The position numbers were made by a program, and so were the translations under genes. The notes under the pieces are model-generated. The model worked only from the letters and a program-made list of their open reading frames with translations, made no database searches and was not told the DNA's origin. Positions 28,536-48,081 of a DNA stretch of 64,000 nucleotides are shown one piece after another. The DNA is taken from assembly GCA_963664815.2 (NCBI GenBank), contig CAXXHB010000003.1, forward strand, positions 2,304,001-2,368,000. The letters are read 5' to 3'. Source of the stretch: Spirochaetota bacterium (GTDB lineage Bacteria; Spirochaetota; UBA4802; UBA5550). Position 1 is the first letter of the stretch. The number at the start of each line of letters is the position of its first letter.

Positions 28536-28567
28536 ATGCTTCACCTTCTGCTGTGATATTTTTAAAA

Positions 28568-31411: not shown

Positions 31412-32600
31412 CTTTAATCACCCCTGTAAGGTCATCAATCATCCGGTCAACAATTTCAAATGCGTTTGCTTCATTCTGCATCTCAATCTGCAGCTTTTTA
31501 ATCTCCGGAAGGTATAAATTTACTATTTTCCCTGCACTTTCATATGAATACCCTGCTGAAACAAAGTTTTCAGTTTCAATTGATTCAGTTGTTATAGCCT
31601 TTTCCTGATCTGCACCAAAGTACGAACCGGACTCATCATATGTAAATGACACTTTTGCCTTTAAAGCCCCGGCTGACTCAATTTTCCTTTCACACATTAC
31701 AGTATCAGGATAGAGAGAGTCACTTATTCTGAATGAGCATATTACAACCGAATCCCTTTGAATATCCGCAGAAGAGAGCCATAAGTCAAACTCCACGGTG
31801 AAATCATCCTCTCTCCCGGAAAGGAATGTGTGGCTTTTCAGAATTCTGGTTCGTCTTTTTGTACTTATATTATCACGGATACCGGTTTCTGTATCAAAGA
31901 CAATGAAAAACTTTTCATCGCTCTCCGCCATGTCCCAGTATTCAGGAGAACCGGGTACAAAAAAATATGGATCATTTGCAGGGTAGTGACTATATGAATG
32001 AAAATGACCTCCTGCAATATAAGCAACCTTCCCTTTAAATAAATCAATTACACCGGAGGTAACAGTGCCCGGGAAATGATCATTAGAACTTATTGCCGTA
32101 TGCACAAGAACAATATTTGCCTTGTCTGCATCAAGTATCTCAGCAAGAGAACGCGACATGTCTTCTATATAAATTCCCGGATATCCCATTGAATAAAAAT
32201 ATATGCCGTCAATTATAACCGGTTCAAAAAGATAATCATTCTCATCATCAGGTATAACTGATGGCATATAAACAAGTTTTCTGTGTGCCAGATAGTTAAG
32301 CCAGGTGGAGTCACTGCTCCCGCCGCGATCATGGTTACCCTCAGAGATAACTGTTTTAATACCGGATTCATTAAGTTTTAAGAATAACTTTTCCGCACGT
32401 TCCAGTATCTCCGGAGTAATTTCACGACGGTCAAATATATCACCCGATATAATTACAGTGTTAACTGAATTCTCAACAGCGTACTCTGCAATATGGTTAA
32501 ATGAATCAAAGTAATCATTAAACCTGGAGCCGGAATATTCCCCTATCCCGCCGACAGGACGCCTTCCAAGGTGAAGATCGGAACAGTGAAGTATTTTCAT
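31401..32600 (-). CDS. sbcD: SbcD/Mre11 nuclease
   Basis: HCSDLHLG, SGDIFD, GNHD, GHFH, PGSPE; overlaps sbcC. Confidence 0.92.
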   Translation of the reverse strand: MKILHCSDLHLGRRPVGGIGEYSGSRFNDYFDSFNHIAEYAVENSVNTVIISGDIFDRREITPEILERAEKLFLKLNESGIKTVISEGNHDRGGSSDSTWLNYLAHRKLVYMPSVIPDDENDYLFEPVIIDGIYFYSMGYPGIYIEDMSRSLAEILDADKANIVLVHTAISSNDHFPGTVTSGVIDLFKGKVAYIAGGHFHSYSHYPANDPYFFVPGSPEYWDMAESDEKFFIVFDTETGIRDNISTKRRTRILKSHTFLSGREDDFTVEFDLWLSSADIQRDSVVICSFRISDSLYPDTVMCERKIESAGALKAKVSFTYDESGSYFGADQEKAITTESIETENFVSAGYSYESAGKIVNLYLPEIKKLQIEMQNEANAFEIVDRMIDDLTGVIKDAD

Positions 32601-32926
32601 ATAACCTCTGAATCTTTGTTTATCTCATTCATTAAACGTTCAAGTCAAGTATCTTTAACAATTGTCTTTTAATAAAACGTCTGAATTGTATATTTTACCA
32701 ATAATAATCCTGAACTATTTTATTTATTTATTATTTTTCCACTACATCACTCTTTTTTTATAATTATCTGAAAACTGTCAATTCAGCTGCACGGCTTCAT
32801 ATGTATAATAATTCTATTTTTTTACAGTTTAATACGCCGGGAATTCTCGCATTACAATAAAATTTATTTGACTAAAGAATAAACACTTATATAAATTTGA
32901 TCTATTATTTCAATAAGGAGTTTACC

Positions 32927-33922
32927 ATGTTGAGTTATCTTGCAGATTGTGTTACATTCTGCGTCAAATTTATACTTTTATTAGCATCATCACTTCCATG
33001 GACAGGAACGAAACTTGGTCTTGGCGCCTGGGCTCTTATTCTTGTTATAACCGGGATTCTGCTTTATTACCCGGTTTTCTTTGTTCTTTTAAAAAAAGGA
33101 AACAGCAGGGCTATCCTTGTATGGCAATGGTTTTTTTTCGGAATATTTTTCCTACCTACCGCTGTTTACGGCTCAGTACTTCTACATTACGCCTCCGGAC
33201 ATCTCGATTTTTTTTCTAAATCTGTCAGCTGGGTTCAATACTGGGGTGGAGACGGGAAGTCCATTCACTGGTTTTCTCTTCCTACATGGAAGTTTATCGG
33301 CATATGTCTCCTGATCGTCATCGGAGCATGGTTCGCGGCGGTCATGATAGAAAATATCCTTGTAGGATCATGGCGTTTTGATTTCACACAGATGGAAGAA
33401 GATCCACTGATGGTAGATTCAACAATGTGGATCATTTTAGGGGCAGTCGGCGGCGGATTTTACGGATTTTTTGCAATGCTCAACCGGAAGGAAACGTTCG
33501 ATTTTATAAACAATAAAGTGGCATCAGGAAAGTACTCCGGATTTTTTACCTGGCTCATGTTTCTTGCCCTTGTTATTATATTACTTATGTTTCTTTTTCT
33601 TGTGGCAAGGGCTGTTATATCATCCGGAATTTTTGCACCGGCATGGTTAGCCTGCATGCTGCCGGTAGCGGGCACGACTTTTTTCCTGGCTGCTTTTATG
33701 GTACCATTTGTTATCGCTGTTCTTGGTATATATTTTCTTCTAGGGGGACTTGCCGAAGCCGGCAGCGGAAAAGTAAGCCCGACTAATTTCAAAAGCGTTT
33801 CAATGGGCGCACCTCAGCAGGAGGACTTCTGGGCAAAGAACGCGCGTATGCAGGCTTCCGGGTTTGAATACTCTATGACGCAGGCGCAGTGGGTAAATAA
33901 AAATCCCTCTAATGATGACTGA
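32927..33922 (+). CDS. Multi-pass membrane hypothetical protein
   Basis: AAGGAG RBS; about 7-8 TM segments; converges on the kinase operon. Confidence 0.7.
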   Translation: MLSYLADCVTFCVKFILLLASSLPWTGTKLGLGAWALILVITGILLYYPVFFVLLKKGNSRAILVWQWFFFGIFFLPTAVYGSVLLHYASGHLDFFSKSVSWVQYWGGDGKSIHWFSLPTWKFIGICLLIVIGAWFAAVMIENILVGSWRFDFTQMEEDPLMVDSTMWIILGAVGGGFYGFFAMLNRKETFDFINNKVASGKYSGFFTWLMFLALVIILLMFLFLVARAVISSGIFAPAWLACMLPVAGTTFFLAAFMVPFVIAVLGIYFLLGGLAEAGSGKVSPTNFKSVSMGAPQQEDFWAKNARMQASGFEYSMTQAQWVNKNPSNDD

Positions 33923-33950
33923 AAATCAGCGCCTTTGTAATTATAAATAA

Positions 33951-35342
33951 TCAGTCGTGTACCTGGACGAAGAGTTCTTCGTCCAGGTCGTAGAAAAGAT
34001 AAAACGTATTGTTTCCGGCCTTAACAATTCCTGAATTCAGCTGAGCTGCAAATTTCATTCTTTCACCACTGCTGTTAACTGGCGTCAGATCAATACCTCC
34101 GATCCACTTCGGAGCACCTTTCATGACACTGTTCAGATCAGGCATTATCCGTTTATGCATTCTGTTGCTTCGCTGTATCTCCTTTTGCAACAGATTCAGC
34201 ATTCTGGTCACAGTCATATCATCAGGTTCACTTTCAAACAGATTCTCACTTAAATTTTTTGCTTCAAAATGTGCAAGATAATGTAATATACGGCAATAGC
34301 GTCCTGATTCAGAGTGTACAGGAACATGTACAGATTTTGAATTAATGTTCCAGAACCATATAAGTTCCTCTTTTATTTCAGGACTGAAATTTTCAAAAGC
34401 AGCTAATTCTTCAGATGTAAACAGACGCTCATAACGACGAAACATTCTGTAATCACCTGAGAGAAAAAAACAGTTCCCCGTCCATTCCCTGTCAGATTCA
34501 CTGAGAAGACAACGCAGCAGCGGCCTAAGCCCTGCAGTTTTCTTATCACGTGAAGGAAAGGCAAAGACATTCTGAATTGAAGGATAGACATAACACATTG
34601 CAGGGAAAAAATCACTGACAGGTTTTGAGATTTTCTCTTCAGATGCTAAACCTGATTTGCCTATATCAGATACACTGAAATGTTCCGTTTCTATTATGAA
34701 GACTTCATCTGAATTTTTACGCGCCTGCCTCTCAATCTGCCTTAATACCAGCCGTGAATCATAATCCCTGAGATGTTTCTCCGCTGTTTCGATTGTTGAA
34801 ATTGCATCGGCAAAAAGTCCAAGCTCACGTTCAGCCTCAGCTTTTGCAATATAATCACCTGATTCTTCCGCCAAGAAAATTATTCTTTTCAGTGTTTCCG
34901 CAAGATCCAGGGGAAGACAGCTATCCGCCTCTACGGAGGTATATTTTCTCCTGTTATGATTTTGCTCCCACCATAGACGGGTATATAGTATATATTCATA
35001 TCGACGATCAGCGGGTTTTAATTTTCGGCTTTGAGGGAACAGCTCTGTTATAGCTTCAAGGTAACTGATATCATTCTTTTTATCGTCTATGCCTATAAAA
35101 GGGAGTTCCTGGTAATCTTCACTCCCCGGCACCTGTTTTTTTATTTTCGCTTTCGCTATAATAAACCATCTGCTACAATAATGACATAGTTCCACAACCG
35201 GCTCCATCGGATACATAACAGCACTGTAGTACCCGTCAGACCAGAACCTGGCACCAAAAGTATTCCCTGATATTAAGATCTGTTTTCTATACAGTCCTCC
35301 ACAATGAGTACATGATATTATTTCATCCTTTCCGGAACCCAT
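33951..35342 (-). CDS. Hypothetical protein: N-terminal zinc ribbon, TPR-like helices, C-terminal DUF1963/YwqG-like motif
   Basis: CTHC..SGNTFGARFWSDG..CHYC; KAEAERELGLFADA; GAPKWIGG..MKFAAQL..YLFYD. Confidence 0.6.
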   Translation of the reverse strand: MGSGKDEIISCTHCGGLYRKQILISGNTFGARFWSDGYYSAVMYPMEPVVELCHYCSRWFIIAKAKIKKQVPGSEDYQELPFIGIDDKKNDISYLEAITELFPQSRKLKPADRRYEYILYTRLWWEQNHNRRKYTSVEADSCLPLDLAETLKRIIFLAEESGDYIAKAEAERELGLFADAISTIETAEKHLRDYDSRLVLRQIERQARKNSDEVFIIETEHFSVSDIGKSGLASEEKISKPVSDFFPAMCYVYPSIQNVFAFPSRDKKTAGLRPLLRCLLSESDREWTGNCFFLSGDYRMFRRYERLFTSEELAAFENFSPEIKEELIWFWNINSKSVHVPVHSESGRYCRILHYLAHFEAKNLSENLFESEPDDMTVTRMLNLLQKEIQRSNRMHKRIMPDLNSVMKGAPKWIGGIDLTPVNSSGERMKFAAQLNSGIVKAGNNTFYLFYDLDEELFVQVHD

Positions 35343-35345
35343 ACA

Positions 35346-35582
35346 CTATCCTGTGATTTTCACTATTTCTTCAAGACGATTTCTGAGAGTATCTGCTTCT
35401 TTAACATTTCCCTCCGCTTCTGCCTCAATGAGCATACGGCGTACATGTACTTTTTCAGCCCTTATGTTTTTATACTCCTCTTCAAGTTCTTCAAGTGTCT
35501 CAATCTTTCTGATCCGCTCGGACAGATCGCCAGGAAGAATTTCTTTCATCATTTTTTTGAACAAATCATTCTTCTCCGTCAT
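35346..35582 (-). CDS. Small coiled-coil protein, UVR-like
   Basis: EAEAEGNVKEADTLRNRL resembles the UVR motif; 3-nt gaps to both neighbours. Confidence 0.55.
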   Translation of the reverse strand: MTEKNDLFKKMMKEILPGDLSERIRKIETLEELEEEYKNIRAEKVHVRRMLIEAEAEGNVKEADTLRNRLEEIVKITG

Positions 35583-35585
35583 AGC

Positions 35586-35873
35586 TCATACCATTATTTC
35601 ATCAGGTGTTATATCCCCGTTTTCAACAAGCACACGGATTGCACGAAGTGTCCTTTCCTTTCCCTCTTTATATCTTTCAAGATTATCTCGGTTTAATCTG
35701 CCGATCATCAGGATGAGTTCTTTTCTATCTTTTTCACGCATATTTTCCGCAAATAGATGAACAATTTTCTCATCCTTATCAAGAAGAAACCATGCTATAT
35801 CCTCCACATCCAGTTCGCGTATAATTTTTTTAACAGCCGTATCTGCAAAAGAGAGAAGATCATATTCCTGCAT
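35586..35873 (-). CDS. Stand-alone FliG C-terminal-like domain
   Basis: DTAVKKIIRELD.EDIAWFL...FAENM.....L.....IRVLVENGDI parallels FliG-C (D..IQ..LRE......LA.AL....F.NMS.R...IR.L...GEI). Confidence 0.65.
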   Translation of the reverse strand: MQEYDLLSFADTAVKKIIRELDVEDIAWFLLDKDEKIVHLFAENMREKDRKELILMIGRLNRDNLERYKEGKERTLRAIRVLVENGDITPDEIMV

Positions 35874-35934
35874 AATTTTTTCTCAATTCCTTTCCTTCAA
35901 TTATTGTTAAACAACACATTAGATACCGTAATTA

Positions 35935-38900
35935 TCAATTCTCATAGCTTCTGTACATACGATAAACCTTTTCAAATTTTTCAGAGATCGTTGTCATCAT
36001 AAACACTATTGCCATTGGTATTGCCAGCATAACAAGATATGCCGCAATAACCGCTGTACCGTCAGGAAATTTCTCTATTAGCCCGGGGATTAATCCGCCA
36101 GCCGCATATATCTTCTCACTCCCCGGAATCATAGAAGCCGCCCTGTGTCCGAAGGCAACCAGAACAGGGAATAAAACAGGTAATACAAAAATATACAGTA
36201 TCTGCCCCTCAAACCTGTTCAGCGTATTCACCAGTTTAATCCTGTAATTATAAAATGAACCACAGATTATCATCAGAGTATATGCAATAAAAAAATGTGA
36301 AAGTAAAAAAGCTATAAATCCAAGAAGTATCGGTGATAATGAAATCAATCCGGTAATCCTGCTTACGATATCAAAAGAGAAGAACAGCATCAGAATCGTT
36401 ATCCCTTTTATGGCCGATCCTGTTACACTATTTAACAGGTGCCGTATTTTTAAACCTTTCCCGGGATCAAGAATGGATGCTGTATCATTAAACTTTTCCC
36501 TCTTTGCATAGCAATACGCGGTTTCTCCATCCGGGTCTGCAAGCATTATATCAGCCCCGTATTTAATCAGCATCCTTACTATTCCATTATGACCATCTCC
36601 GGCGGCAAGCATAAGCGGAGTACATTCATCAACAGTGGTAAAAACATTTACCCTTGCACCTTTTTTAAGCAACAATTCCACGATTTCGGGTGAAGATTCC
36701 CTTTCTGTGATTTTGGAATGCTGTAATATGGCCCCCATAAGCGGAGTTATGCCATGTTCTTCCCCTCCATTGATATCAACTCCTGCATCTATAAGAGTTT
36801 TTACAGTCTCAAGCGCCTCCCCCTTTTCATCATTTCGTAAAGCATAGTGGAGCAGATTACAGCCATCTTCCAGAATGATCTTCGGATCAGCGCCCTTTTC
36901 AAGCAGAAGTTTAACAATAGTATTCTGTGATTCTGCTGTTGCTGTTTCATCAGGTGATCCCATAAGAAGAAGCTGCAGCGGCGCGTATTCTCTATCTTCC
37001 TCTTTCTGAGGAAGATTCGGATCAGCTCCTCTGTCAAGGAGCATGGAAGCAATTTCAACATTTCTCCAGCATGCAGCAAGACCCAGAGGAATCTGGCCAT
37101 TCAGGGCAGGACTGTTTACATCAGCGCCGTTGTCCAGGAGTATAGATGCCATTTTTTTATTGCCGGTCAGTATGGAACAATTAAGCGGAGTGGTGTCAAA
37201 ATCGAGAAGTTCAGGATGTGCATTCCCGTTGACCGGAAGGCCCTGAGAAATATAGAATTCCATAAGATCAATCCTGTTCCCACAGGCAATAATACAGGCA
37301 TCTTCAAGCCATTTATTATCATTCCATAAAAACAGAACATCACGGCAATTTCTGAATGGAAACATTTTCAGTACTGTAAAGCGCGAAACAGGATGCATGT
37401 TCATAAGACTGTATGTATCATTAATGATGTTTCTCTTTTCAAGCCATACCAGGAGTTTCGAATCGTCAGTCATTATCCCGCTGATAATCTCCTGCCGTAT
37501 TTCAGGATCTGTTTCCAGCGCCAATTCCTCAGGACTGTAGTAATATTTACCGAGTAGTTTTATCCGCCCTTCACCGTTACTCTGAAGACTAAGAATTACC
37601 GTGTTGAGGGCTCTCTCTTCTGTAATCGCGTCTGAATCAAAGAGATCCCAGAAAGAATCAGCAACGGTTTTCCCGTTTTCTCCGCCAACGGCTTCAAGAT
37701 AAAGATAAAACGGCGACAGGGGGTTTTTAAGCTCCTCCTGGTAATAGATATTGTCCTGATGTGTCAACTCGTCAATTTTAACCATGTCATGAGCTTCAGC
37801 CTCAAGCGCATCCCCCAGTTCCTCGGCAGTAGTACACAACCTGCCCTTATGAGAGATAAATGGTTTTCCCGGATCCAGAGTATATATGGCACGTGTAAGC
37901 CCCGCATTTCTTTCATCACTGCCACTGTATAATTCGATAATTTTCTCCATTTCAGTTGAAAGGGCCATATCATTTGCTTTTTCAAGCCATTCCTTGATTT
38001 TCCCCATATACAGATAATCTGCGCCGCGTTCCGGATGCTTTTCAAGAAGCACTGCTAGTTCTGCAGGGGTTGAGAATGTTTCCGTTGAACTGAATGACCG
38101 CTGTTCATAGGGCCGCAGTGTCGAATTGTAGCTGACTGTCAGTTTTTCTCCTGCAATCCATTTTTTTATTTCACTGTACCCCCACCTCTCTTTCGGAAGT
38201 GGGTTTATAAGTCCTTTGATAAGTACAGCAAGATCAGGGTCCATGCCTCCCGGAAATTCAACTGTTTTATCCCGCACCATTGCAGATCTTATTGCGTCGG
38301 GGATCCCCCTGAATGGTTTTTCTCCAAGCCAGAGATGATACATCGTTATCCCGAAAGCAAAATAATCGGCTGCCTTCCCGGCCATAACCTCCGTCTGGTT
38401 TCCAAACCTCATCAGTTCTGGTGCGGCATACTCTTTCGTACCGTTAGCCCTTACAATTGCCTCACCGGTTCCGTTTTTCATCAGGCTGGAAATACCAAAA
38501 TCCGCCAGCACTACAGATGATCTTGTCTGATCTGTAAAATACACATTTTCCGGTTTCAAATCCTGGTATATTATACCGAGTTCATCATGCAGAACACGCA
38601 GACCCTCGGCAATATTTCCTGCCAGCTTTTTGAGCTGAACAATATTGCTTAACGGTCCAATTTCACGAAGATAACTGTCAAGAGGCCCTCCTGAAGCATA
38701 ATCCATTATTTCAAAATCACGTTCTTCAAACTGTCCAAAATCATGTATTCCTATAATCATTCCCGAACGATCAGATCTGATTTTGCTTATAACATCTTCC
38801 GGAAATTTATATCCCTTCCTGTAATGTTTCATTACAAGAGGTTTCCCACCAAGCTCAATTTCATATATTATTGCCTCACCGGAGGAAATGCTGATAATTC

Positions 38901-39255
38901 TTTTTATTATATAGTTTATTCCATTCAGTTGTACAGTTTTCCCCGGTTCAAAAATTTCATCTCCCTCTGTCTGTTTATGCAATAATACCGACTGGCTGTT
39001 CATTATTCTGATGGTTTCCGCATCCTGCTGGGTATCACCTCCGGCTGCGGATGTAATTTTTATTGTTTCAGCGCTGTTATTATCAATACATACAGTTGAA
39101 TCTGCCGAATCTGCAGATTTTTGTTCATCCAGCCTTACTGTCGGCTGGTTTATATCATTGATCCTTACGGTTGCTTCTGCGGAATCATCAGCTTTTATAT
39201 CATCAATCCTTAACGTCGCATTATTAATTCTTACTGTTTTATTATTTTCACTCAT
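35935..39255 (-). CDS. Hanks-type Ser/Thr kinase with N-terminal Thr-motif repeats, ankyrin repeats and C-terminal TM helices
   Basis: SGEAIIY, VMKHY, YQDLKPEN, ADFG, GTKEYAAPE; ankyrin motifs TPL..A, LL..GADVN; about 4 TM segments. Confidence 0.9.
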   Translation of the reverse strand: MSENNKTVRINNATLRIDDIKADDSAEATVRINDINQPTVRLDEQKSADSADSTVCIDNNSAETIKITSAAGGDTQQDAETIRIMNSQSVLLHKQTEGDEIFEPGKTVQLNGINYIIKRIISISSGEAIIYEIELGGKPLVMKHYRKGYKFPEDVISKIRSDRSGMIIGIHDFGQFEERDFEIMDYASGGPLDSYLREIGPLSNIVQLKKLAGNIAEGLRVLHDELGIIYQDLKPENVYFTDQTRSSVVLADFGISSLMKNGTGEAIVRANGTKEYAAPELMRFGNQTEVMAGKAADYFAFGITMYHLWLGEKPFRGIPDAIRSAMVRDKTVEFPGGMDPDLAVLIKGLINPLPKERWGYSEIKKWIAGEKLTVSYNSTLRPYEQRSFSSTETFSTPAELAVLLEKHPERGADYLYMGKIKEWLEKANDMALSTEMEKIIELYSGSDERNAGLTRAIYTLDPGKPFISHKGRLCTTAEELGDALEAEAHDMVKIDELTHQDNIYYQEELKNPLSPFYLYLEAVGGENGKTVADSFWDLFDSDAITEERALNTVILSLQSNGEGRIKLLGKYYYSPEELALETDPEIRQEIISGIMTDDSKLLVWLEKRNIINDTYSLMNMHPVSRFTVLKMFPFRNCRDVLFLWNDNKWLEDACIIACGNRIDLMEFYISQGLPVNGNAHPELLDFDTTPLNCSILTGNKKMASILLDNGADVNSPALNGQIPLGLAACWRNVEIASMLLDRGADPNLPQKEEDREYAPLQLLLMGSPDETATAESQNTIVKLLLEKGADPKIILEDGCNLLHYALRNDEKGEALETVKTLIDAGVDINGGEEHGITPLMGAILQHSKITERESSPEIVELLLKKGARVNVFTTVDECTPLMLAAGDGHNGIVRMLIKYGADIMLADPDGETAYCYAKREKFNDTASILDPGKGLKIRHLLNSVTGSAIKGITILMLFFSFDIVSRITGLISLSPILLGFIAFLLSHFFIAYTLMIICGSFYNYRIKLVNTLNRFEGQILYIFVLPVLFPVLVAFGHRAASMIPGSEKIYAAGGLIPGLIEKFPDGTAVIAAYLVMLAIPMAIVFMMTTISEKFEKVYRMYRSYEN

Positions 39256-39267
39256 CGCTTTCTCCTT

Positions 39268-40080
39268 TTATTTCAGGTTCAGCGGAGGACGTTTATATCC
39301 CCTGTCGCTTTGTAGAATCATCATATTAATATTGCTTTTATCCAGATAATAGCTGTAAACCTTATCGATACCGTTTTTATCGCTTTTTTTAGCATAATAA
39401 CCGGCTTTTTTCTCTTCAATATCCTTCAATCTGAAATACTCGGGATTTTCTTCTTCAAACTTTCTCCTTTGTGCATCTGTCACTTTTTTTAATGCAAAAT
39501 TCTTTATTACATACTCCCTGTATGTTTTTTCAAAAGCATCTATTGCATTTTCCATATTGAACACAGTTACCGAATCCTCCCAGTGCCTCGGCATTAATAT
39601 GAAACCTCTGACAGGTGTTTCACCACTGTAAAATTCGGCAGGAGCCCATACATCGCCACCACGCCGTATAACTCCTCCGAGAATAACAACAGTTCCCCGC
39701 GGGACAGACATCACCGGCACCGTCGTTTTGATCATGTCGCTCCCTGTAATTTTAGTAAAGAAAGGTCTTTCTGCGGTAAGAGTATATGTAGCGCGGCTTT
39801 CACCTTTTACAATTGAACTAGAATAAGCCTCATGACCGTATATGTAGAAAGTTCTGATGTCAATCACATTACCCGCAGTTGAAATAATACGGCTGAAACC
39901 GCCTCCATTAAAAAAAAAGATCAGAAGCAAAACTACCCCTGCCGGAATACCGATTTTCAAAAACTGTACCAATCTGACTACAAACCTGGTAAACCAGTTT
40001 ACGCATTCCGGGCACTGCCTGTTATTAAAGAATCCTCCATCAAAATCGCTGTCACAGTTTGGACAAGTCCAAATGGTCAT
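39268..40080 (-). CDS. Zinc-ribbon single-pass membrane protein
   Basis: GGAGG RBS; CPNC..CPEC, TM segment, extracytoplasmic domain. Confidence 0.65.
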   Translation of the reverse strand: MTIWTCPNCDSDFDGGFFNNRQCPECVNWFTRFVVRLVQFLKIGIPAGVVLLLIFFFNGGGFSRIISTAGNVIDIRTFYIYGHEAYSSSIVKGESRATYTLTAERPFFTKITGSDMIKTTVPVMSVPRGTVVILGGVIRRGGDVWAPAEFYSGETPVRGFILMPRHWEDSVTVFNMENAIDAFEKTYREYVIKNFALKKVTDAQRRKFEEENPEYFRLKDIEEKKAGYYAKKSDKNGIDKVYSYYLDKSNINMMILQSDRGYKRPPLNLK

Positions 40081-40081
40081 T

Positions 40082-40807
40082 TTATACCTCCTGTATCGAT
40101 GCAATAATTACCGATATATTATCTTTACCACCCCCTGACTCAGCTGCAGAGACCAGTGCTTCCAGCGGACAGGGATTTGTTTTAAGTATATCTTCAATTT
40201 CATCAGTATGTACAATGTCATGCAGCCCGTCGCTTGAAAGTAAAATAATATCAGTTGATGATAGTCCCACATCTATCGGAGTAAACTCAAGAAACATTTT
40301 ACCACCTCCGCCGAATGAATTGGTTATTATATTTGACGGGGCATCGGGCATGCTCCCTGACTCCCTGAGAGAATGATCCATTGTCAGTCGTTTCAACAAT
40401 CCATGGCTGAAAAGCCAAAGTCTTGAATCACCCGCGTGAAAACGAAAAGCTTTACCCCGATAAAAAAGAATCCCAACCAATGTAGACCCGCTATTCTTTG
40501 GCACTTCCATGTGAGTTTCTTCGGCAAAAGTCCTGAAAACCTCAGCAATCTCATCGTCGGAAAGGTCACCCGGAATACCATGCATGAAATACAAGAGCCT
40601 TTCCAATACCATGGCGCTCGCTTCTTCGCCATTCTCAAGCCCCCCCATTCCATCAGCAACCGCAAGTACAAATGGTTTATCATTTTTATTAATAATTTCA
40701 GCTGAATATCTCCCGTCACGTAAAAGCTTATCGTCAACAAGTATCATATCTTCATTACTGGAGCGTACAAGACCGATATCACAGATTGCGGATACTGAAA
40801 TGCGCAT
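40082..40807 (-). CDS. PP2C-family Ser/Thr phosphatase
   Basis: GLVRSSNED, VADGMGG, HAGDSR, SSDGL, GGKDNIS. Confidence 0.93.
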   Translation of the reverse strand: MRISVSAICDIGLVRSSNEDMILVDDKLLRDGRYSAEIINKNDKPFVLAVADGMGGLENGEEASAMVLERLLYFMHGIPGDLSDDEIAEVFRTFAEETHMEVPKNSGSTLVGILFYRGKAFRFHAGDSRLWLFSHGLLKRLTMDHSLRESGSMPDAPSNIITNSFGGGGKMFLEFTPIDVGLSSTDIILLSSDGLHDIVHTDEIEDILKTNPCPLEALVSAAESGGGKDNISVIIASIQEV

Positions 40808-40809
40808 AA

Positions 40810-41382
40810 TCAGATTCTGGCAGTCGCGTTTTCAGATACTGCTATTTCTACACTAAAATCAATATCAGCTATTCTGAGGGTTGAACCGTTATTTACAGTA
40901 CCGGCTTTATTCGGGACAAGTTTAACCTTGTTAATATAAGTGCCATTGGTCGACCCTGTATCTGAAACAGTCCATATGCTGTCATTATATTCAATTTTAA
41001 TATGACTCCCGGACACCTGCGGAAACCGGCTGAATATTTCAGCAAACGGGCCTGATTTACGTCCAATAACATCTCCATGTGAAGGTGTTATATCTATTCC
41101 ATGCGTTTTACTGTAAAGCCTGAGCTTAAATGGCTGCAACTGCTTAGATTTATCTCCATGATCAGTAGTACCAGAAGATACTGCAGACATTTGCTGTACA
41201 GGAATTGTTTCCGTGCCAGTATTCACTTCATGACCAGGTTTAATCATCACCTGCCCGTCAAAGATACATCTTTTCCCCTTGCCCGGCCTTCCGCAGAGAG
41301 AACACAATAATATCTCTCCGCCACATTGGTCACAGTATATCGAATCATCATCTATTGTTTCCCTGCAATAAGGGCAGTTCAT
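40810..41382 (-). CDS. Zinc-ribbon plus FHA domain protein
   Basis: CPYC..CDQC..CSLC; FHA motifs IGR, VSGSH, GSTNGTYIN. Confidence 0.9.
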   Translation of the reverse strand: MNCPYCRETIDDDSIYCDQCGGEILLCSLCGRPGKGKRCIFDGQVMIKPGHEVNTGTETIPVQQMSAVSSGTTDHGDKSKQLQPFKLRLYSKTHGIDITPSHGDVIGRKSGPFAEIFSRFPQVSGSHIKIEYNDSIWTVSDTGSTNGTYINKVKLVPNKAGTVNNGSTLRIADIDFSVEIAVSENATARI

Positions 41383-41405
41383 AATATTCCTCCTATCCTG
41401 TTCAC

Positions 41406-43958
41406 CTATCCTGTCACAGTACGGTCAAGATCCTCGGTACGCATTATCCTGATCTCTCTTTTCAGAATCTCATCTTCCACTCCCCTGTCCTGCATCCCGA
41501 TTATGCGGCTGGAGAGTTTTTCTCTTGTCTTTTCAAAAACCTGCCGGACTGTCCTTGCATTAGCGAATGTAGCGCTTTTACCCGAATGAATCTCTTTCAT
41601 TCTTTCCCTGAGCGTTGCTTCAAATCCGTCAGCATATTCAATTTTTTTACTCTTTGCCATGGAATTGAATATTTCAACCATTTCATCCGGAGTGTAATCC
41701 TCGAATGTAATGAAATTAGTGAAACGCGATTTAAATCCGGAGTTTGATTCAATGAACTCATCCATCTCACTTTTATATCCGGCTGCGATACATACGAACT
41801 TACCCCTGTCATCCTCCAGACGCTTAACAAGGGTGTCAACAGCCTCTTTGCCATACTGGTCACCAGCCCCCTGATTCAGCGAATATGCCTCATCTATAAA
41901 AAGTATACCACCCATTGCGCTGTCACATGCGGAATTAACAAGGGGCGGAGTCTGCCCCATATGCGTACCTACAAGCTTCCCGCGGTCCACCTCAACCCGG
42001 TTGTTTGAAGGAAGCATTCCGATTCCCTTAAAAACATCTCCAAGAATACGGGCAACAGTAGTTTTACCGGTACCCGGATTCCCATAAAAAATAAAATGTT
42101 TGGAGACTGCATCCTCCTCCCCCGAAATTTTACCCGCACGGATTGTATTTATTATTGCATTCACTGCTTCTTTAACCGACGCAAGACCTGTAAGTTCATT
42201 AAGCTCTTTCAAGGCATCGTCAACGGTTACAGCCTTTGCCGATGTAGTAAGAGGTATATCTGCCGCAGTTATGGTAAGTATATCTTTTGTGTTATATGCT
42301 TTACCTTCATCTGCCGATTTAGCCAGGCGGTCTGACTGATTGCGCCTGGCATCTTCAAACAGATTGCGCGCTTCACGGCCATTGGCAAAATCTTTCGTTT
42401 TTCTTGAGCAGCGGTCTTTAAAAAATAAAAGAACATTTTCTGCCGCATTTTCTTCTACTATATATTTCTGCTGCCTGGCTTCAATTTTAAATATTTCAAC
42501 AAGTTCTTCCGGATTGTAATCTTCAAGATGAAAACGTTTATTAAACCTGCTTTTAAGACCATCATTCGCCGAGATAAATTTATCCATAGGCTCTTTATAT
42601 CCGGCGGCGACAACCACGAATTTATCTCTGTCGTCCTCCATACGCTTGAGCAGAGCCTCAATAGCCTCAACTCCGAAATCGTTTTCACCACCCTTGGCAA
42701 GGGTATATGCCTCATCGATGAATAACACCCCCCCCATTGCCTGATCACAGAGTGCATTAGTCTGCGGAGCTGTCTGTGCAATATAACCGGCCACCATTTT
42801 ACTCCGATCAACTTCTATTACATGTCCTGTTTCAAGTACGCCCAGCCCTTCAAGTATGCTTCCGAGAAGACGTGCTACCTTTGTTTTACCTGTACCAGGA
42901 TTACCTGTGATGGTAAAATGGTTTACCGGTTTTTTAATTTCTGTCCCGCTGGCTGCCATATCCTGAACATTTTTCATCTGATTAAACAGACTTCGTATCT
43001 CTGCTTTAATGTTTTCCATACCGATAACAGCATCAAGTTCGGCCATTATTTCATCAAGACTTCTCTTCTTTTCAACGGGAAGCGTTACATCCTCTTCAAT
43101 TATAATTTTATCCGCTACTTTCCTTTTAAAATAAGAGGACATAATTTCACGGGCCTCTTTCAACGCGAGGTAACCGTTATGAGCACTGATCTCTGAATCT
43201 GACCTCTTCAGATCTTTTATCAAATATCTGAATCTTTTATTGATCTGATCTTTTACATCTCCGGAAACAATAAGTCCCTGCCTGTCAAGCTCATGACAGA
43301 CAATATCAGAACACTGCGCCGGTGTGTAATCCGGGACAAAAAAGATATTCTGGAAACGACCTGTAATATTTTTATTCTCCGGTTTTTTTACAAATTCCCT
43401 GAACCCGAAAGGAAGCCCGGCAAGTATTACAACAGGATCATTTTCAGATGAATCTATCTGTGTTATAAGAGTTCCAAAGCCGGATGATGCCTTTCCATCT
43501 GAATCAACAAGTTTATGTGCGTTATCAATGAAGAGTACTCCCCCTTTTGCAGCATTAAATATTTTTACAAAGTCAGATGAACCCATTTTTTCGAGTGAAC
43601 TGCCATCCAATACTTCCGGCGTCTTTTTTGTTATCACTCCATAAGATTCAAGAATAGAGGTAATAAGATTTCCTGTAAGCGTTTTTGCAGTACCTGAATT
43701 TCCGATAATAATTGTATTGTACGGTATTCTGAAAGAAGCGCCATTTCTCTTCATACCATCAAGGACATCACTCAGTCCATTCAGTTCTCTTTTAATCTCA
43801 TCAAGACCTACCAGACCATCAAGCAATCCGGGTACACCTGAGGAAATTATGTTATCACCAGCAGCCTGCATCACCGATACAAGACCTTTTCCGCAGTATC
43901 TGCAGAATTTTGCCGTACCGCGGTTATCCTTGCCGCAGTTGCCGCATTTTATAGACAT
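41406..43958 (-). CDS. Zinc-ribbon plus triple AAA+ ATPase (CbbX/SpoVK/EccA clade)
   Basis: CGNC..CRYC; three modules: GNSGTAKT/FIDNA (degenerate), GNPGTGKT/FIDEAY twice, with AGY and GLKSRF/GFKSRF, ANGR/ANAR. Start placed after AGGAGG. Confidence 0.9.
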   Translation of the reverse strand: MSIKCGNCGKDNRGTAKFCRYCGKGLVSVMQAAGDNIISSGVPGLLDGLVGLDEIKRELNGLSDVLDGMKRNGASFRIPYNTIIIGNSGTAKTLTGNLITSILESYGVITKKTPEVLDGSSLEKMGSSDFVKIFNAAKGGVLFIDNAHKLVDSDGKASSGFGTLITQIDSSENDPVVILAGLPFGFREFVKKPENKNITGRFQNIFFVPDYTPAQCSDIVCHELDRQGLIVSGDVKDQINKRFRYLIKDLKRSDSEISAHNGYLALKEAREIMSSYFKRKVADKIIIEEDVTLPVEKKRSLDEIMAELDAVIGMENIKAEIRSLFNQMKNVQDMAASGTEIKKPVNHFTITGNPGTGKTKVARLLGSILEGLGVLETGHVIEVDRSKMVAGYIAQTAPQTNALCDQAMGGVLFIDEAYTLAKGGENDFGVEAIEALLKRMEDDRDKFVVVAAGYKEPMDKFISANDGLKSRFNKRFHLEDYNPEELVEIFKIEARQQKYIVEENAAENVLLFFKDRCSRKTKDFANGREARNLFEDARRNQSDRLAKSADEGKAYNTKDILTITAADIPLTTSAKAVTVDDALKELNELTGLASVKEAVNAIINTIRAGKISGEEDAVSKHFIFYGNPGTGKTTVARILGDVFKGIGMLPSNNRVEVDRGKLVGTHMGQTPPLVNSACDSAMGGILFIDEAYSLNQGAGDQYGKEAVDTLVKRLEDDRGKFVCIAAGYKSEMDEFIESNSGFKSRFTNFITFEDYTPDEMVEIFNSMAKSKKIEYADGFEATLRERMKEIHSGKSATFANARTVRQVFEKTREKLSSRIIGMQDRGVEDEILKREIRIMRTEDLDRTVTG

Positions 43959-43971
43959 ATCGGAATCCTCC

Positions 43972-45003
43972 TTAACTTGGCCCTTTAATATTAACATCAA
44001 TTGTGCCGCCAGTATACCAATAACCGCCAAGTTTCGGTTCATCACAGGCATTAGGTCCTTCCGGACAGAGATGTACAGTATTTGTAAAATTGCAAAGCCA
44101 GCCTGTTACTTCCGGAGGCTTCATCGCCATATGATAACGCCGTGCCTCCTGCTGAGTGGTAAACTTTTTATTTCTGAATTTAAGCATTGCTTCATTAGCC
44201 GCCTTCTCCGCAGCGCTTTTTTTCTTCTCAAGTTCGGCTTTCTTCATCATTAACGCGTCAAATTCAGCATCTTTTACTGCACGTATTCGTTGCTCTTCCA
44301 ACTGTTCGTTACGTGCAGCTTCCTCTTCTTTAATTTTTTCGGCCTTTGCTATTGTCTTCTCAGACCCCAGAATTTCCTTAATCTGTGCATCTGAAAAAAA
44401 GGATGGTTTCACCGGTGACACCGCTGCAATTGAAGGAGATTGTCCCTCTTTATTTTTTCCCGCTTCTTCAATAAGACGTTCAATTTCCGACAGTTCTCTT
44501 TCAAGAGAAATTGATTCCCGTACTGTCTCTATAAAATTTTTTGCTTCTGGATCTTTCTGCGCAGCAACTGCTGCTGAACGCGCGTATTCTGTCAGAGGTT
44601 TATTACATTTTGAACAGAAATCAAATATGCTCTTTGTGCCGCAGGAGGGACATACTATACCATTTTTATCATTACCGCATTCCGGGCAAAACGAAGCATC
44701 ATCAGGAATTTCAGCATAACAGAATTTACATCTGCCGTCAAGAAGCCATTCTCCGCAGAATGTACAGATATCTGCTCCCGGATTAACCGGTTTACCACAA
44801 TGAGGACAAAAAAGCGGTGCATTCAACATCGAGCCGCATTCCAGACAGTACTCAGCTTCAGGAGGATTCACGGTACCACATGAAACGCATTTTATTCCAT
44901 CTTCAACAGACTGCTGATTGGATATCTCTTTTTGGAAAGCCTCTTCATGCTGTTGTTTTGCAAATGAAGACTGCTTCTCTTTGCCCTGATAATTACCGGT
45001 CAT
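43972..45003 (-). CDS. Multi zinc-ribbon (double zinc ribbon) coiled-coil protein
   Basis: Eight CxxC motifs, a coiled coil, and a C-terminal C/H-rich motif WLCNF...HLCPEGPNAC. Confidence 0.8.
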   Translation of the reverse strand: MTGNYQGKEKQSSFAKQQHEEAFQKEISNQQSVEDGIKCVSCGTVNPPEAEYCLECGSMLNAPLFCPHCGKPVNPGADICTFCGEWLLDGRCKFCYAEIPDDASFCPECGNDKNGIVCPSCGTKSIFDFCSKCNKPLTEYARSAAVAAQKDPEAKNFIETVRESISLERELSEIERLIEEAGKNKEGQSPSIAAVSPVKPSFFSDAQIKEILGSEKTIAKAEKIKEEEAARNEQLEEQRIRAVKDAEFDALMMKKAELEKKKSAAEKAANEAMLKFRNKKFTTQQEARRYHMAMKPPEVTGWLCNFTNTVHLCPEGPNACDEPKLGGYWYTGGTIDVNIKGPS

Positions 45004-45456
45004 TTTATGATACCTTTTATAAATATACTATGCTGATCTATTTTTTACCAGATATTAGTGTTGCCATTCTCTTTCATATTAAAACAAACCGCTCTATGAT
45101 ATGTTCCGACATAACATGGTCAAGCTTTTTACATATATTTATATATATAAATGTTTATTTTAAAACCTCTGATTGATACAATAATACAATGTGGGCATTC
45201 TGATAAAAGAGGTTTAATAAACTGAATCATACATTTGATAACTATTACTGAATTCGTATTAATAAGTTATAACACTATTTACTCAGATGATGTCAGTATT
45301 TAATTATTTCAACCTCTATACTGCACTTTATCAGGAATTTTTTGATTTTTCCGTAAATCAATATATGCTTGTTTTTTTTACTGTATTAATATTATTAGAT
45401 ATTTAAAATTTTTTACTTTTATTTGCTGATTAAAATTCAATAAAGAGGAATTTGCT

Positions 45457-46884
45457 ATGGACGATCTTTTCCCAGATAACGAATTACTTTCACTGCTGAA
45501 CAGCGTAATAAACGGAGATCAGTCATCCGGTAAAAGCCAACCTCAGCGTTTTATTCCTGACAACAAGCCATCACAGATACATAACCTTGATATTCTTCGA
45601 ACTTCTGTTTTTACAGACGACGATCTGGAATCCTTCACCCGTGCCCATGATAAAACTGCAGCCGAAATCGGCAAAATCATCGGCGGGATGGTTGTCACTG
45701 CAGACTTTTCAGGAGCGATTCTTACAGGAGAATTTCTGCGCAGCGTGCCTGCCGATTCTTTGACATATATTCTCGCTTTTCAATCCGGCCGTTATGACGG
45801 TTTTATTGAAACTGACCAACCACTGTGTGAATTTTTAAACGATGAAATTGTAAATGAAATAGTTTCAGTTATAAATCAATTCCCTGTAATAAATATGGAA
45901 CTGAATTGTACTCTGTCAGGGAAAACAGAGGGTCCTTTTCTCCAGAACCATGACAAAACAGTATTCTGTAAAATGTCAGCAAAATACGGTGATAAAGTCT
46001 TCGGCATAAATATCGGCTACGATATAAACCTGGCTGCAAAAATGCTGAATATTTCCCTGCCTCATGATATTCCGCTAAGTAGAGATACTTTCTATATCGG
46101 TTCCGCAGGAATATCAAAAATTTTACAGCTTATTCCCGGGAAAAGTATATCTTTGCCTGAAATCTGCCCGACTGTGTATCACACCCGTATAGAAAATACG
46201 GAAAAAAACATGGATTACACAACACTTAGTACAGATCCCTTTATGGAAAACATAAGGTTTCCTCTGACCGTTTCTTTCAGTCATTCTGTTTCAGATATTT
46301 ATATGACTGAAGGGGAACCAGCAAAACTCTATGCTGGTTCCAACCTGATTGCTTCAGTTGTAATCCGAAAAAAAAACGGCCTTCTCACAGCATCTGTAAC
46401 AGATCAAAATATAGACCACGAATACGATAATGCCGGGCAAAACACACTGATCCCTGTTTATGCGGAGTTAGGGAGATGCATATATACTGATGAATCGTTT
46501 TCTATCGGACAGATTCTCCATCTTTACAACGATCGTTTCCCGCATATCAGGCTTTATGCAGGATCAAATCTCTATATGGGGGAATGTGAGGCCATATCCT
46601 GTGACAGCAGTTTCGCAGCAAGAATACTTGATACCTCACCGATAGAACAAAATCCCTCTGAAAGAGGAAACCTCCGTTTTGTTCTTGCAGTAAGAAATTT
46701 TCCTTTACAGGATATATCATCCATTGAAAAGTACGACAACCTTATCTTTAACGGACCTTTTACCGGAGATATTCTGATTTATAATGGTAATCGTCAGGTC
46801 GCCTGGGGGCAGATATCCGAACAAAACAATGATTATTGCATACGTGTTATTTCAATTCCTGAAGACAAGGGTGATCATTTATGA
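45457..46884 (+). CDS. Divergent FliM-FliN-like protein with several SpoA (FliM/N C-terminal)-like domains
   Basis: N-terminus LFPDNELLSLL, IHNLDILRTSVF, EFLRSVP resemble FliM; IPVYAELGR..IGQILHL and ILIYNGNRQVAWGQI..YCIRVISI resemble FliN/SpoA. Confidence 0.6.
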   Translation: MDDLFPDNELLSLLNSVINGDQSSGKSQPQRFIPDNKPSQIHNLDILRTSVFTDDDLESFTRAHDKTAAEIGKIIGGMVVTADFSGAILTGEFLRSVPADSLTYILAFQSGRYDGFIETDQPLCEFLNDEIVNEIVSVINQFPVINMELNCTLSGKTEGPFLQNHDKTVFCKMSAKYGDKVFGINIGYDINLAAKMLNISLPHDIPLSRDTFYIGSAGISKILQLIPGKSISLPEICPTVYHTRIENTEKNMDYTTLSTDPFMENIRFPLTVSFSHSVSDIYMTEGEPAKLYAGSNLIASVVIRKKNGLLTASVTDQNIDHEYDNAGQNTLIPVYAELGRCIYTDESFSIGQILHLYNDRFPHIRLYAGSNLYMGECEAISCDSSFAARILDTSPIEQNPSERGNLRFVLAVRNFPLQDISSIEKYDNLIFNGPFTGDILIYNGNRQVAWGQISEQNNDYCIRVISIPEDKGDHL

Positions 46885-47240
46885 CAGAGTCATTTCATGT
46901 AGGTTATCGTGCAGAAAATGACACCAGCGGATCAAGATTTTATCTTCTTTTCTGTAAAGCTCTTGAACTGAAAGATATACCACCGGCTGAAGATAACGAT
47001 CCCGATTTCTGGCATACAATCTCCCTTATCGGAGTTATAGCCTGGAACCTTAGCTTTGAACCTGAAACCGGAGAAAATCTGATTCAGCACATGGAAAAGG
47101 AATATGACATGTCCCTCCCCCCTTCATTTCATAAAATCATGACCACTATGATCGAAGACAGAAGAGCAGCTTTTCCGGATGAAAGTTGTCTGATAAAAAA
47201 GTGCCGTTTTGAATGGCCTGATATGATCGTGGAGTATTAG
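46881..47240 (+). CDS. Hypothetical protein
   Basis: ATGA overlap with the upstream gene. Confidence 0.6.
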   Translation: MTESFHVGYRAENDTSGSRFYLLFCKALELKDIPPAEDNDPDFWHTISLIGVIAWNLSFEPETGENLIQHMEKEYDMSLPPSFHKIMTTMIEDRRAAFPDESCLIKKCRFEWPDMIVEY

Positions 47241-47270
47241 TCATTTTGATTATTTGCCGTATATTCTGAA

Positions 47271-48050: not shown

Positions 48051-48081
48051 ATAATATTCATTAAATATTTTTAATAACAGA

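Follow-up and report, generated by a model that had tools for sequence, protein, structure and literature searches.

Across 64,000 nucleotides of contig CAXXHB010000003.1 from a Spirochaetota bacterium (positions 2,304,001 to 2,368,000; hereafter, the window), nine minus-strand genes (g1 to g9) follow each other in close succession. Within them we recognize an undescribed, widespread, and apparently phosphothreonine-controlled tandem-AAA gene set, which the window carries as a six-gene variant followed by three orphan genes. On balance, we lean toward the view that g1 through g6 constitute a self-contained cassette, in which a membrane kinase, a PP2C phosphatase, and an FHA reader control a tandem AAA+ chaperone that works with a ribbon/hairpin partner. 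The gene content of the cassette, its conservation, its motifs, and its folds were observed directly and are laid out below.

A sequence-only reading of this locus had proposed a single undescribed system of nine co-directional, tightly packed genes with gaps of 1–61 bp. It described a kinase, a PP2C, and an FHA protein joined to a CbbX/SpoVK/EccA-type multi-AAA protein in one tight, membrane-anchored unit. The open reading frames (ORFs), their positions, and their spacing are as described, the domain calls for g1, g2, g3, g4, g6, and g7 all find matches in Pfam, and Pfam together with the transmembrane (TM) segments bears out the composition of the unit. Its novelty also stands, in that no description was found in the literature, figures and supplements not covered. 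What had to be revised is the extent of the system: the conserved core comprises five genes, or six with g5, and g7–g9 find no match in 90 related loci. The features are as follows (aa, amino acids; AF2, AlphaFold2), each with the basis of its assignment.

43972..45003, minus strand: g1, ribbon/hairpin core protein, 343 aa (Pfam, family alignment, AF2 model)
41406..43958, minus strand: g2, core protein with a zinc ribbon and three AAA modules, 850 aa (Pfam, motifs, PDB sequence matches)
40810..41382, minus strand: g3, core protein with a double zinc ribbon, a low-complexity linker, and an FHA domain, ending in TARI-COOH, 190 aa (Pfam, alignment A3)
40082..40807, minus strand: g4, PP2C phosphatase core protein, 241 aa (Pfam, NCBIfam)
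39268..40080, minus strand: g5, accessory protein combining a zinc ribbon and a single TM helix with an SH3b-like barrel and a domain of alpha/beta type, 270 aa (AF2 model, fold searches)
35935..39255, minus strand: g6, core Hanks kinase whose ankyrin repeats precede four TM segments at the C-terminus, 1106 aa (Pfam, TM scan)
35586..35873, minus strand: g7, lineage-specific FliG_C-like protein outside the conserved cassette, 95 aa (Pfam)
35346..35582, minus strand: g8, lineage-specific charged helical protein outside the conserved cassette, 78 aa (sequence)
33951..35342, minus strand: g9, orphan with an N-terminal CxxC...CxxC ribbon outside the conserved cassette, 463 aa (sequence)
45004..45456, no strand: AT-rich 453-bp region between g1 and a divergent gene, presumed operon promoter region (sequence)

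A gene set that recurs across phyla

The cassette recurs in other genomes. A first search compared g2 with the genomes of 40 relatives and returned multi-module matches in two of them, G009 and G011, which belong to the same family and to other genera. In both, a kinase, a double-zinc-ribbon protein, a four-module AAA protein, a zinc ribbon–FHA protein, and a PP2C are encoded side by side. None of seven congeners yielded a multi-module match; six carry a single-module paralogue in a frame of ~500–650 aa, and the seventh gave a weak match. The host genome likewise encodes a separate single-module paralogue of g2, in a 641-aa open frame elsewhere. A single-protein scan with g2 produced eight loci, two of them complete cassettes, and a wider scan used one genome per species and an alignment of 17 three-module relatives, from which the best 80 of 516 confirmed loci were taken. 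In 90 loci (L013–L102), all ORFs were classed by phmmer against the proteins g1–g9 and those of G009 and G011. All five classes (ribbon protein, AAA, FHA, PP2C, and kinase) are present in 22 of the 90 loci, and partial sets, often at contig ends, in another 7. The AAA protein is accompanied by the kinase in 6 loci and by the FHA protein in 2, and stands alone in 52; the ribbon protein is alone in 1. By their record names, the hosts include Bacteroidales, Chitinophagaceae, Melioribacteraceae/Ignavibacteria, Treponema/Spirochaetaceae, and Cloacimonadota, and further Vicinamibacterales, Panacagrimonas, Roseateles, and Desulfobacteraceae.

Gene order is conserved along with gene content. The FHA gene directly follows the AAA gene wherever both were detected, and the PP2C gene comes next in all but two loci, while the ribbon-protein and kinase genes swap places between lineages. 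The window itself has all five classes and the order g2–g3–g4, as in the 22 complete loci. Its closest relative, locus L023 in a metagenome-assembled genome (MAG) of Treponema, matches its six-gene succession (ribbon protein, AAA, FHA, PP2C, g5, kinase), and each of the six proteins can be aligned over its full length with its counterpart in the window, at 35–56% identity. The L023 kinase is 36% identical to g6 over its whole length and shares its ankyrin and four-TM layout, and its phosphatase is 51% identical to g4. For g2, identity reaches 56% with the Treponema protein and 36–38% with the cassettes of its own family. The sequence-only reading would have been undone had gene order not been kept in other genomes; with the AAA protein as seed, it proved to be kept for the core. 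Because the same genes recur together elsewhere, the arrangement of g1–g6 is more than chance, a support that g7–g9 do not share. For the same reason, we define the conserved unit as five genes, and as six in the sub-type represented by the window and L023.

Several observations from these loci stand apart from the cassette definition. The 52 AAA-only loci (for example L044, L049–L053, L057, L058, L063–L067, and L071) represent other contexts of tandem SpoVK/CbbX-type ATPases; among them are types of 1290–1360 aa in Ignavibacteria/Melioribacteraceae and of 670–720 aa in Lentisphaerae/Kiritimatiellae. Two cassettes from Ignavibacteria have a SUKH-1 (SMI1/KNR4) gene within them or immediately behind them (L026:10445-10966 and L027:5215-6009; matches at 6.6e-14 and 1.1e-5). 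In G011, a 242-aa gene with a weak nucleoside 2-deoxyribosyltransferase-like match (0.0063) separates the kinase from the ribbon protein.

The proteins and a shared threonine motif

The kinase g6 combines a disordered N-terminal tail, a Hanks kinase domain (Pfam Pkinase, 1.2e-27), a conserved helical middle region, ankyrin repeats (Ank_2, 6.2e-34), and four C-terminal hydrophobic segments predicted to span the membrane. Its tail carries a short threonine motif, T-x-[RK]-[ILV], in six copies (KTVRI, ATLRI, ATVRI, PTVRL, ETIKI, and ETIRI) within residues 1–100, compared to an expectation of 0.19; none of 5000 shuffles reached six. Among the other eight proteins of g1–g9, the motif is found in g3 only, in two copies, one of which forms the last four residues of the protein (TARI). 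Elsewhere, 13 of the 27 kinase-bearing loci have at least three copies of T-x-[RKQ]-x in the pre-kinase tail, with up to ten in L045, and 9 of 29 FHA proteins, two of the nine being near-identical, end in T-x-[RK]-[ILV]. The flavor of the motif agrees between the kinase tail and the FHA C-terminus of one and the same locus, as in the following four cases.

L024: kinase tail KTKR; FHA C-terminus KTKKL
L026: kinase tail KTIR; FHA C-terminus KTVRI
L027: kinase tail KTIR; FHA C-terminus KTIRV
L036: kinase tail STER / ATQR; FHA C-terminus STQRI

That the kinase tail and the FHA C-terminus carry one motif, and that this pairing recurs in other loci, is new here. For the reader g3 (Pfam FHA, 6.2e-12; DZR, 4e-4), alignment A3 (24 sequences) has G107, S124, H127, and N146 invariant and R108 nearly so, and these five are what we take to be the phosphothreonine-binding residues of the FHA family. 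The position that FHA domains commonly recognize is the third residue after the phosphothreonine. Since the motif is repeated in the tails of both kinase and reader, and since the binding residues of the FHA domain are conserved, we infer that the threonines of T-x-[RK]-[ILV] are targets of the kinase and docking sites of g3. The copy on the C-terminus of g3 itself would further make self-inhibition or chaining of g3 possible.

The phosphatase g4 matches PP2C (9.8e-7) and PP2C_2 (7.7e-6) in Pfam and the Stp1/IreP family in NCBIfam (1.8e-32, under the cut-off of that family). Cassette kinases share an unusual glycine loop, S/T-G-E-A-x-I-Y/F, and 23 of 30 have at least two (2–5) C-terminal hydrophobic segments; their middle and C-terminal regions differ between loci, with ankyrin repeats, TPR, or neither. 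In g6, residues 375–690 (window 37186–38133) consist of three loosely repeated helical units that start with S/T-[PT]-[AE]-E-L; no Pfam family matched this region, and its first part is conserved in the kinases of G009 and G011.

In the AAA+ protein g2, Pfam detects AAA in three stretches (3.3e-41) and the AAA_lid_6 lid (7.8e-21), as well as an N-terminal Zn_Ribbon_1 (4.5e-5; 23.5 bits, just short of the 25-bit cut-off). The first module, D0, is degenerate (GNSGTAKT, with a Walker B of D-N), and two canonical modules follow (GNPGTGKT; DEA). The best sequence matches in the PDB are EccA1 (9LUR, 1.4e-50) and CbbX (3SYK, 7.3e-46), and the three best NCBIfam entries are spore_V_K, T7SS_EccA, and cbbX_cfxQ. 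[quoted passage not shown] In both active modules of g2, A-G-Y is invariant (G453-Y454 and G727-Y728 in alignment A1), and N465 and N739 sit in an invariant N-x-G-[LF]-K-S-R-F, where the asparagine precedes the lysine by four residues and the invariant arginine by six. By its closest sequences and its lid, g2 is classified as a member of the SpoVK/CbbX/EccA clade. It shares with the clade the lid and the closest structures, EccA1 and CbbX, and a candidate GY signature is present as well. SpoVK proper, a single AAA module with a short SpoVK N-domain in sporulating Bacillota, was considered and rejected, given the zinc ribbon and three modules of g2 and the occurrence of its relatives in Bacteroidota, spirochaetes, and Proteobacteria.

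In contrast to the clade at large, g2-type chains string together 3 to about 9 modules, of which the first has a dead Walker B, behind a zinc ribbon N-terminal domain. This architecture is common across loci: a zinc ribbon, a first module with D-N at its Walker B (in most), and then 2 to about 8 canonical modules (GNPGTGKT / D-E-A) with a period of ~277 residues. The chains group at lengths around 840, 1110, and 1390 aa; the lengths 1881, 1938, and 2502 aa were each seen once. These longest chains (L028:9331-14976, 1881 aa; L045:10001-15817, 1938 aa; L043:10001-17509, 2502 aa) have at least six or seven Walker A motifs each; in L043, the ribbon-hairpin gene is moreover present twice in tandem, and a 1503-aa hybrid histidine kinase lies upstream. 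A complex prediction for g2 (residues 1–570) with g3 scored 0.16 (mark 0.32) and weighs neither way.

The ribbon/hairpin protein g1 (Pfam Zn_Ribbon_1, 2.2e-18; DZR, 2.5e-18) begins with a helix and continues with four zinc ribbons, a long helical hairpin, and, at the C-terminus, a small Zn-type module. In the family alignment of 21 sequences, the ribbon cysteines are invariant together with R288, W302, C304, H311, P317, C320, G326, G327, and W329. The AF2 model built on that alignment has a predicted local distance difference test (pLDDT) value of 85.5 and a predicted template modeling (pTM) score of 0.68, with the hairpin at residues 139–276. Foldseek returned nothing for it at E <= 0.001, and VIA returned generic helical hairpins (SMC, tRNA-synthetase arms, and designed helical proteins) at Z <= 10.3, a value under the level that VIA calls meaningful for helical folds. 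A likeness specific to ESCRT-III was considered for the hairpin and found no support in either search; the weak ribbon matches in Foldseek include the ArnA zinc finger (8s05_C, E 1.9). A g1 profile matched 60 of 122 genomes, the host included, mostly through the zinc-ribbon columns alone, and the hairpin region was matched only in G000, G011, G117, G118, and G120. Another double-zinc-ribbon family, in a ~375-aa open frame (G000:C3:1520589-1520837) and in 54 other genomes, is common in the order and aligns with the zinc-ribbon columns of the g1 profile only.

The accessory protein g5 belongs to a rare family: 24 proteins, itself included, were found at E <= 0.001 among 1.84 billion representatives, and no Pfam family matched even at E <= 1. 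Sequence and model alike show a ribbon of the CxxC...CxxC type together with a hydrophobic helix. In the AF2 model (pLDDT 89.5), the ribbon lies on the cytoplasmic side of a single TM helix, and residues 82–175 form a barrel on the outer side. Cell-wall-binding SH3b domains top both fold searches, with lysostaphin SH3b in Foldseek (E 0.016, probability 0.99) and, for residues 82–175 in VIA, the SH3b domains of NlpC/P60, lysostaphin, and endolysin proteins at Z 6–7.2. The cassette of L040 has, at the position equivalent to g5, a ribbon and multi-TM protein with a Pfam SH3_3 match (5.2e-9). The predicted SH3b-like outer domain of g5 lends modest support to a role in envelope sensing.

Genomic surroundings, lineage-specific genes, and possible transfer

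With internal starts chosen for g2 (43958, not 44051) and g5 (40080, not 40104), each lying after an upstream stop codon, the intergenic gaps from g1 to g9 measure 13, 23, 2, 1, 12, 61, 3, and 3 bp. The region upstream of g1 contains a promoter-like site with a 10-of-12 match on the minus strand (45123–45096). Promoter and terminator scans gave counts at the level of shuffles, and promoter-like sites are not enriched in 45004–45456. Rfam identified two tRNAs only in the window.

For a stretch of ~15 kb (window 32610–48080), which encodes a multi-TM protein of 341 aa, g1–g9, a FliN-like pair, and a protein of the metallo-beta-lactamase (MBL) fold, five congeners gave no match at the DNA level. 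Of the flanks of this stretch, SbcD is conserved in the congeners and the aminotransferase is matched in three of five; in G006, the two flanks lie on one contig, ~3.8 Mb apart. No integrase, transposase, or flanking direct repeat was seen at the window cassette, the repeats inside genes being duplications of AAA modules and ankyrin repeats. The closer kinship of the cassette to that of Treponema than to those of its own family fits transfer between phyla, as judged from the sequence identities. Just outside the variable stretch, a 615-aa transglutaminase-core protein is encoded beside the SbcC/SbcD pair (26697–32600, minus strand); no link of this gene to the cassette was found.

The flanks of 23 other cassette loci comprise 144 ORFs that match 168 Pfam families, mostly housekeeping, none of them in more than four ORFs, and no recurring secretion or defense partner is among them. 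Without recurring families in its flanks, the cassette appears self-contained. Five loci from Bacteroidales, one in a Prevotella and four in Bacteroidaceae/Bacteroidales MAGs, have the cassette in similar surroundings, four of the five with neighbors of the same size. The neighbors in L081 are homoserine O-succinyltransferase and peptidases U32 and M6, families that recur in two of the scanned loci.

The three genes downstream of the cassette appear to be lineage-specific additions, seen in this genome only, and phmmer matched none of them in the 90 related loci. The match of g7 to FliG_C (7.1e-7) reaches 29.9 bits against a cut-off of 23.3, and no relative but g7 itself was found in 5.8 billion clusters. 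For g8, Pfam at E <= 1 gave weak coiled-coil-type entries only, so that the earlier label "UVR-like" is not borne out. Nor did any Pfam family match g9 at E <= 1; none of its 6177 word-sharing candidates reached E <= 0.001, its Atlas scores were at most 0.85 (with a lead to DUF2225 at 0.83), and the 121 other genomes of the order gave one weak match, to the ribbon only. On the other side of the presumed promoter region, a divergent gene pair (45457–47240, plus strand) encodes one protein of 475 aa, whose end weakly resembles FliMN_C, and one of 119 aa without a family. The former scored 25.9 bits for FliMN_C in the flank scan and 22.7 bits, below the Pfam cut-off, in the genome search, and has no match in the 40 relatives. 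The host genome is flagellated, with three strong FliG_C matches and four FliMN_C matches above cut-off. An unusual fusion of flagellar-switch domains, a 693-aa open frame with two FliMN_C matches and one FliG_C match, lies at G000:C3:1697017-1698273.

Proposed mechanism, precedents, and alternatives

The components suggest a scheme in which each binding and phosphorylation step is a prediction from sequence. The kinase g6 would be anchored in the membrane through the TM segments at its C-terminus and receive input through its ankyrin repeats, perhaps also through the wall-facing g5. It would then phosphorylate the T-x-[RK]-[ILV] sites of its own disordered N-terminal tail and the identical motif at the C-terminus of g3. 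By binding these phosphothreonines, g3 could be recruited to the kinase in multiple copies or released from self-inhibition, and g2, with one non-hydrolyzing and two active modules, may thereby be recruited or licensed to remodel a dedicated client. The likeliest clients would be the hairpin protein g1 or the kinase–FHA assembly itself, and the PP2C g4 would reset the switch. Studied representatives within the SpoVK-EccA-like clade are dedicated chaperones with few clients, according to the available text of Delerue et al. (2024; PMC11513918), and the absence of a protease partner for g2 fits such a chaperone. That text contains no mention of a kinase, PP2C, or FHA, a statement that does not extend to its operon figure (Fig. 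3A).

A number of observations weigh against this scheme. No client or output gene of the cassette was identified. The SH3b likeness of g5 is modest, with Z at most 7.2. The first AAA module may be inert, and chains of 3, 4, 5, 7, and more modules misfit a simple hexamer. The pore loops of the active modules of g2 read Y-I-A and H-M-G, compared to a family consensus of Y-I-G and Y-V-G. In other loci, the +3 residue of the motif is not always I, L, or V (TIRS, TIRP, TVRG), and in the kinase tails of Bacteroidaceae the repeats are weak or lacking and less regular, so the FHA-docking reading may not hold throughout.

Kinase–phosphatase–FHA triads gate large machines, including type VI secretion systems (T6SS), Esx, and cell-wall synthesis. 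The threonine phosphorylation pathway of the T6SS (PpkA, PppA, Fha1/TagH, and ClpV) offers one parallel: there, too, a Hanks kinase in the membrane, a PP2C, and an FHA protein serve as writer, eraser, and reader and gate an AAA+ machine, and the phosphorylated threonine, here a predicted one, lies in an N-terminal cytoplasmic tail. In Agrobacterium, Fha binds phospho-TssL, according to the available text of PMC3953482. The cassette differs in that no T6SS gene occurs in the cluster or its flanks, g2 scores 40.4 bits for ClpV1, where the cut-off is 884.95, an outer vWA domain is absent from the kinase, and the zinc-ribbon hairpin protein is an extra fixed partner. In agreement with the sequence-only reading, Pfam detected no T6SS, type VII secretion system (T7SS), Ter, or vWA gene among the nine cluster proteins and ten flanking ones.

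Esr, as presented in the available text of Wang et al. (2026; PMC13622651), resembles the cassette in that a kinase, a phosphatase, and an FHA output protein are encoded with an AAA+ ATPase, in a phosphorylated threonine located in a disordered region, and in a link to the clade with the Esx chaperone EccA. However, Esr works with a MoxR AAA+ protein, a vWA protein, a beta-propeller filament on the surface, and a transglutaminase, and Pfam finds no such protein among g1–g9; the transglutaminase-like gene of the window is ~5 kb off, beyond SbcCD, and is not part of the operon. Esr is also effectively confined to Actinomycetes, according to the same text. At the level of a single protein, g3 shares its zinc ribbon and FHA layout with ArnA of the Sulfolobus ArnA/ArnB pair (PDB 8S05), and the cassette has no vWA partner corresponding to ArnB.

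The cassette might serve outputs other than the remodeling of a dedicated client; of these, defense and motility have little support. An anti-phage or conflict system would have the kinase sense an invader through its variable ankyrin or TPR regions, phosphorylation or AAA unfolding stop the infection, and the PP2C act as a safety catch. We regard this as unlikely, albeit the most serious of the alternatives. It would account for the patchy spread of multi-module g2 (in the genomes of two out of 40 relatives, both in the host's own family, and in none of seven congeners), the ~15-kb stretch (32.6–48.1 kb) without DNA match in five congeners, the nearest cassette relatives in another phylum, the variable kinase C-terminal regions, and the SUKH-1 genes inside two cassettes and the weak nucleoside-deoxyribosyltransferase-like gene of G011. 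The kinase domain also resembles those of defense kinases, with mad6 (4.7e-32) and PD-T4-6 hit in PADLOC-DB 2.0 (2023 copy), where IetA was the hit for the AAA protein (5.9e-17). These are generic domain hits, and PADLOC matched no system, with no hits for g3, g5, and g7–g9 and none or negligible ones for g1. Moreover, the cassette contains no nuclease, TIR, pore, or protease effector, its flanks at 23 loci are mostly housekeeping with no recurring defense gene, five Bacteroidales loci keep it in similar gene surroundings, and the window locus shows no integrase, transposase, or flanking repeats. A flagellar regulator specific to this host, in which the phospho-switch acts on the flagellar switch through g7 and the divergent FliN-like protein, is far less probable still. 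The FliG_C match of g7, the weak FliMN_C end of the 475-aa protein, the flagellated host, and the regulation of archaeal motility by ArnA-type zinc ribbon–FHA proteins would speak for it. Yet the matches of g7 and the 475-aa protein are weak, the latter falling to 22.7 bits and below the Pfam cut-off in the genome search, neither has relatives elsewhere or occurs in the 90 related loci, and many of those loci come from Bacteroidota, which are not known to have flagella.

Two further possibilities, both improbable in our estimate, center on polymers. By analogy to archaeal Vps4/ESCRT-III loci, g1 could polymerize at the membrane, be marked through phosphothreonine by the FHA protein and the kinase, and be taken apart by the tandem AAA protein. 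The available text of the Makarova et al. (2024) preprint (PMC11188069) places Vps4, ESCRT-III, FHA, and serine/threonine kinase and phosphatase genes in such loci. Like the cassette, they set an AAA+ remodeler beside a protein with a helical hairpin, an FHA protein, a kinase in the membrane, and a phosphatase; the long hairpin of g1 is confidently modeled, and the phospho-motif at the FHA C-terminus would allow head-to-tail chains. On the other hand, the matches of that hairpin are generic (Z <= 10.3, and none in Foldseek at E <= 0.001), g1 has no membrane-binding feature, and g2 is not of the Vps4 family. With a different AAA family, a hairpin that is not specifically ESCRT-III-like, and a bacterial setting, the archaeal loci are an analogy and not a relative. 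Somewhat more broadly, and with an equally small chance of being correct, the cassette might be a phosphothreonine-gated assembly and disassembly machine, where multivalent pT-x-R-[ILV] sites in kinase tails and FHA C-termini build reader-on-reader assemblies at the membrane together with g1, and the multi-module AAA+ protein dismantles them. Because the number of modules per chain varies from 3 to about 9, a classical hexamer may not form. If true, this would give bacteria a kinase-controlled equivalent of cycles of the ESCRT-III/Vps4 or NSF type.

Returning to the favored reading of a kinase, phosphatase, and reader that control a tandem AAA+ chaperone, the machine that is gated here would be a dedicated AAA+ chaperone of the Rubisco activase/SpoVK/EccA clade, with no reported client. 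The cassette is present in Bacteroidales of the gut, in spirochaetes of termites and the rumen, in Ignavibacteria, and in some Proteobacteria, so that an entire signaling route of common bacteria awaits exploration. Since chains differ in how many AAA modules they carry, the structural question arises of how non-hexameric module counts assemble, and the threonine motif shared by the kinase tail and the reader tail provides a concrete and cheap biochemical entry point into the system.

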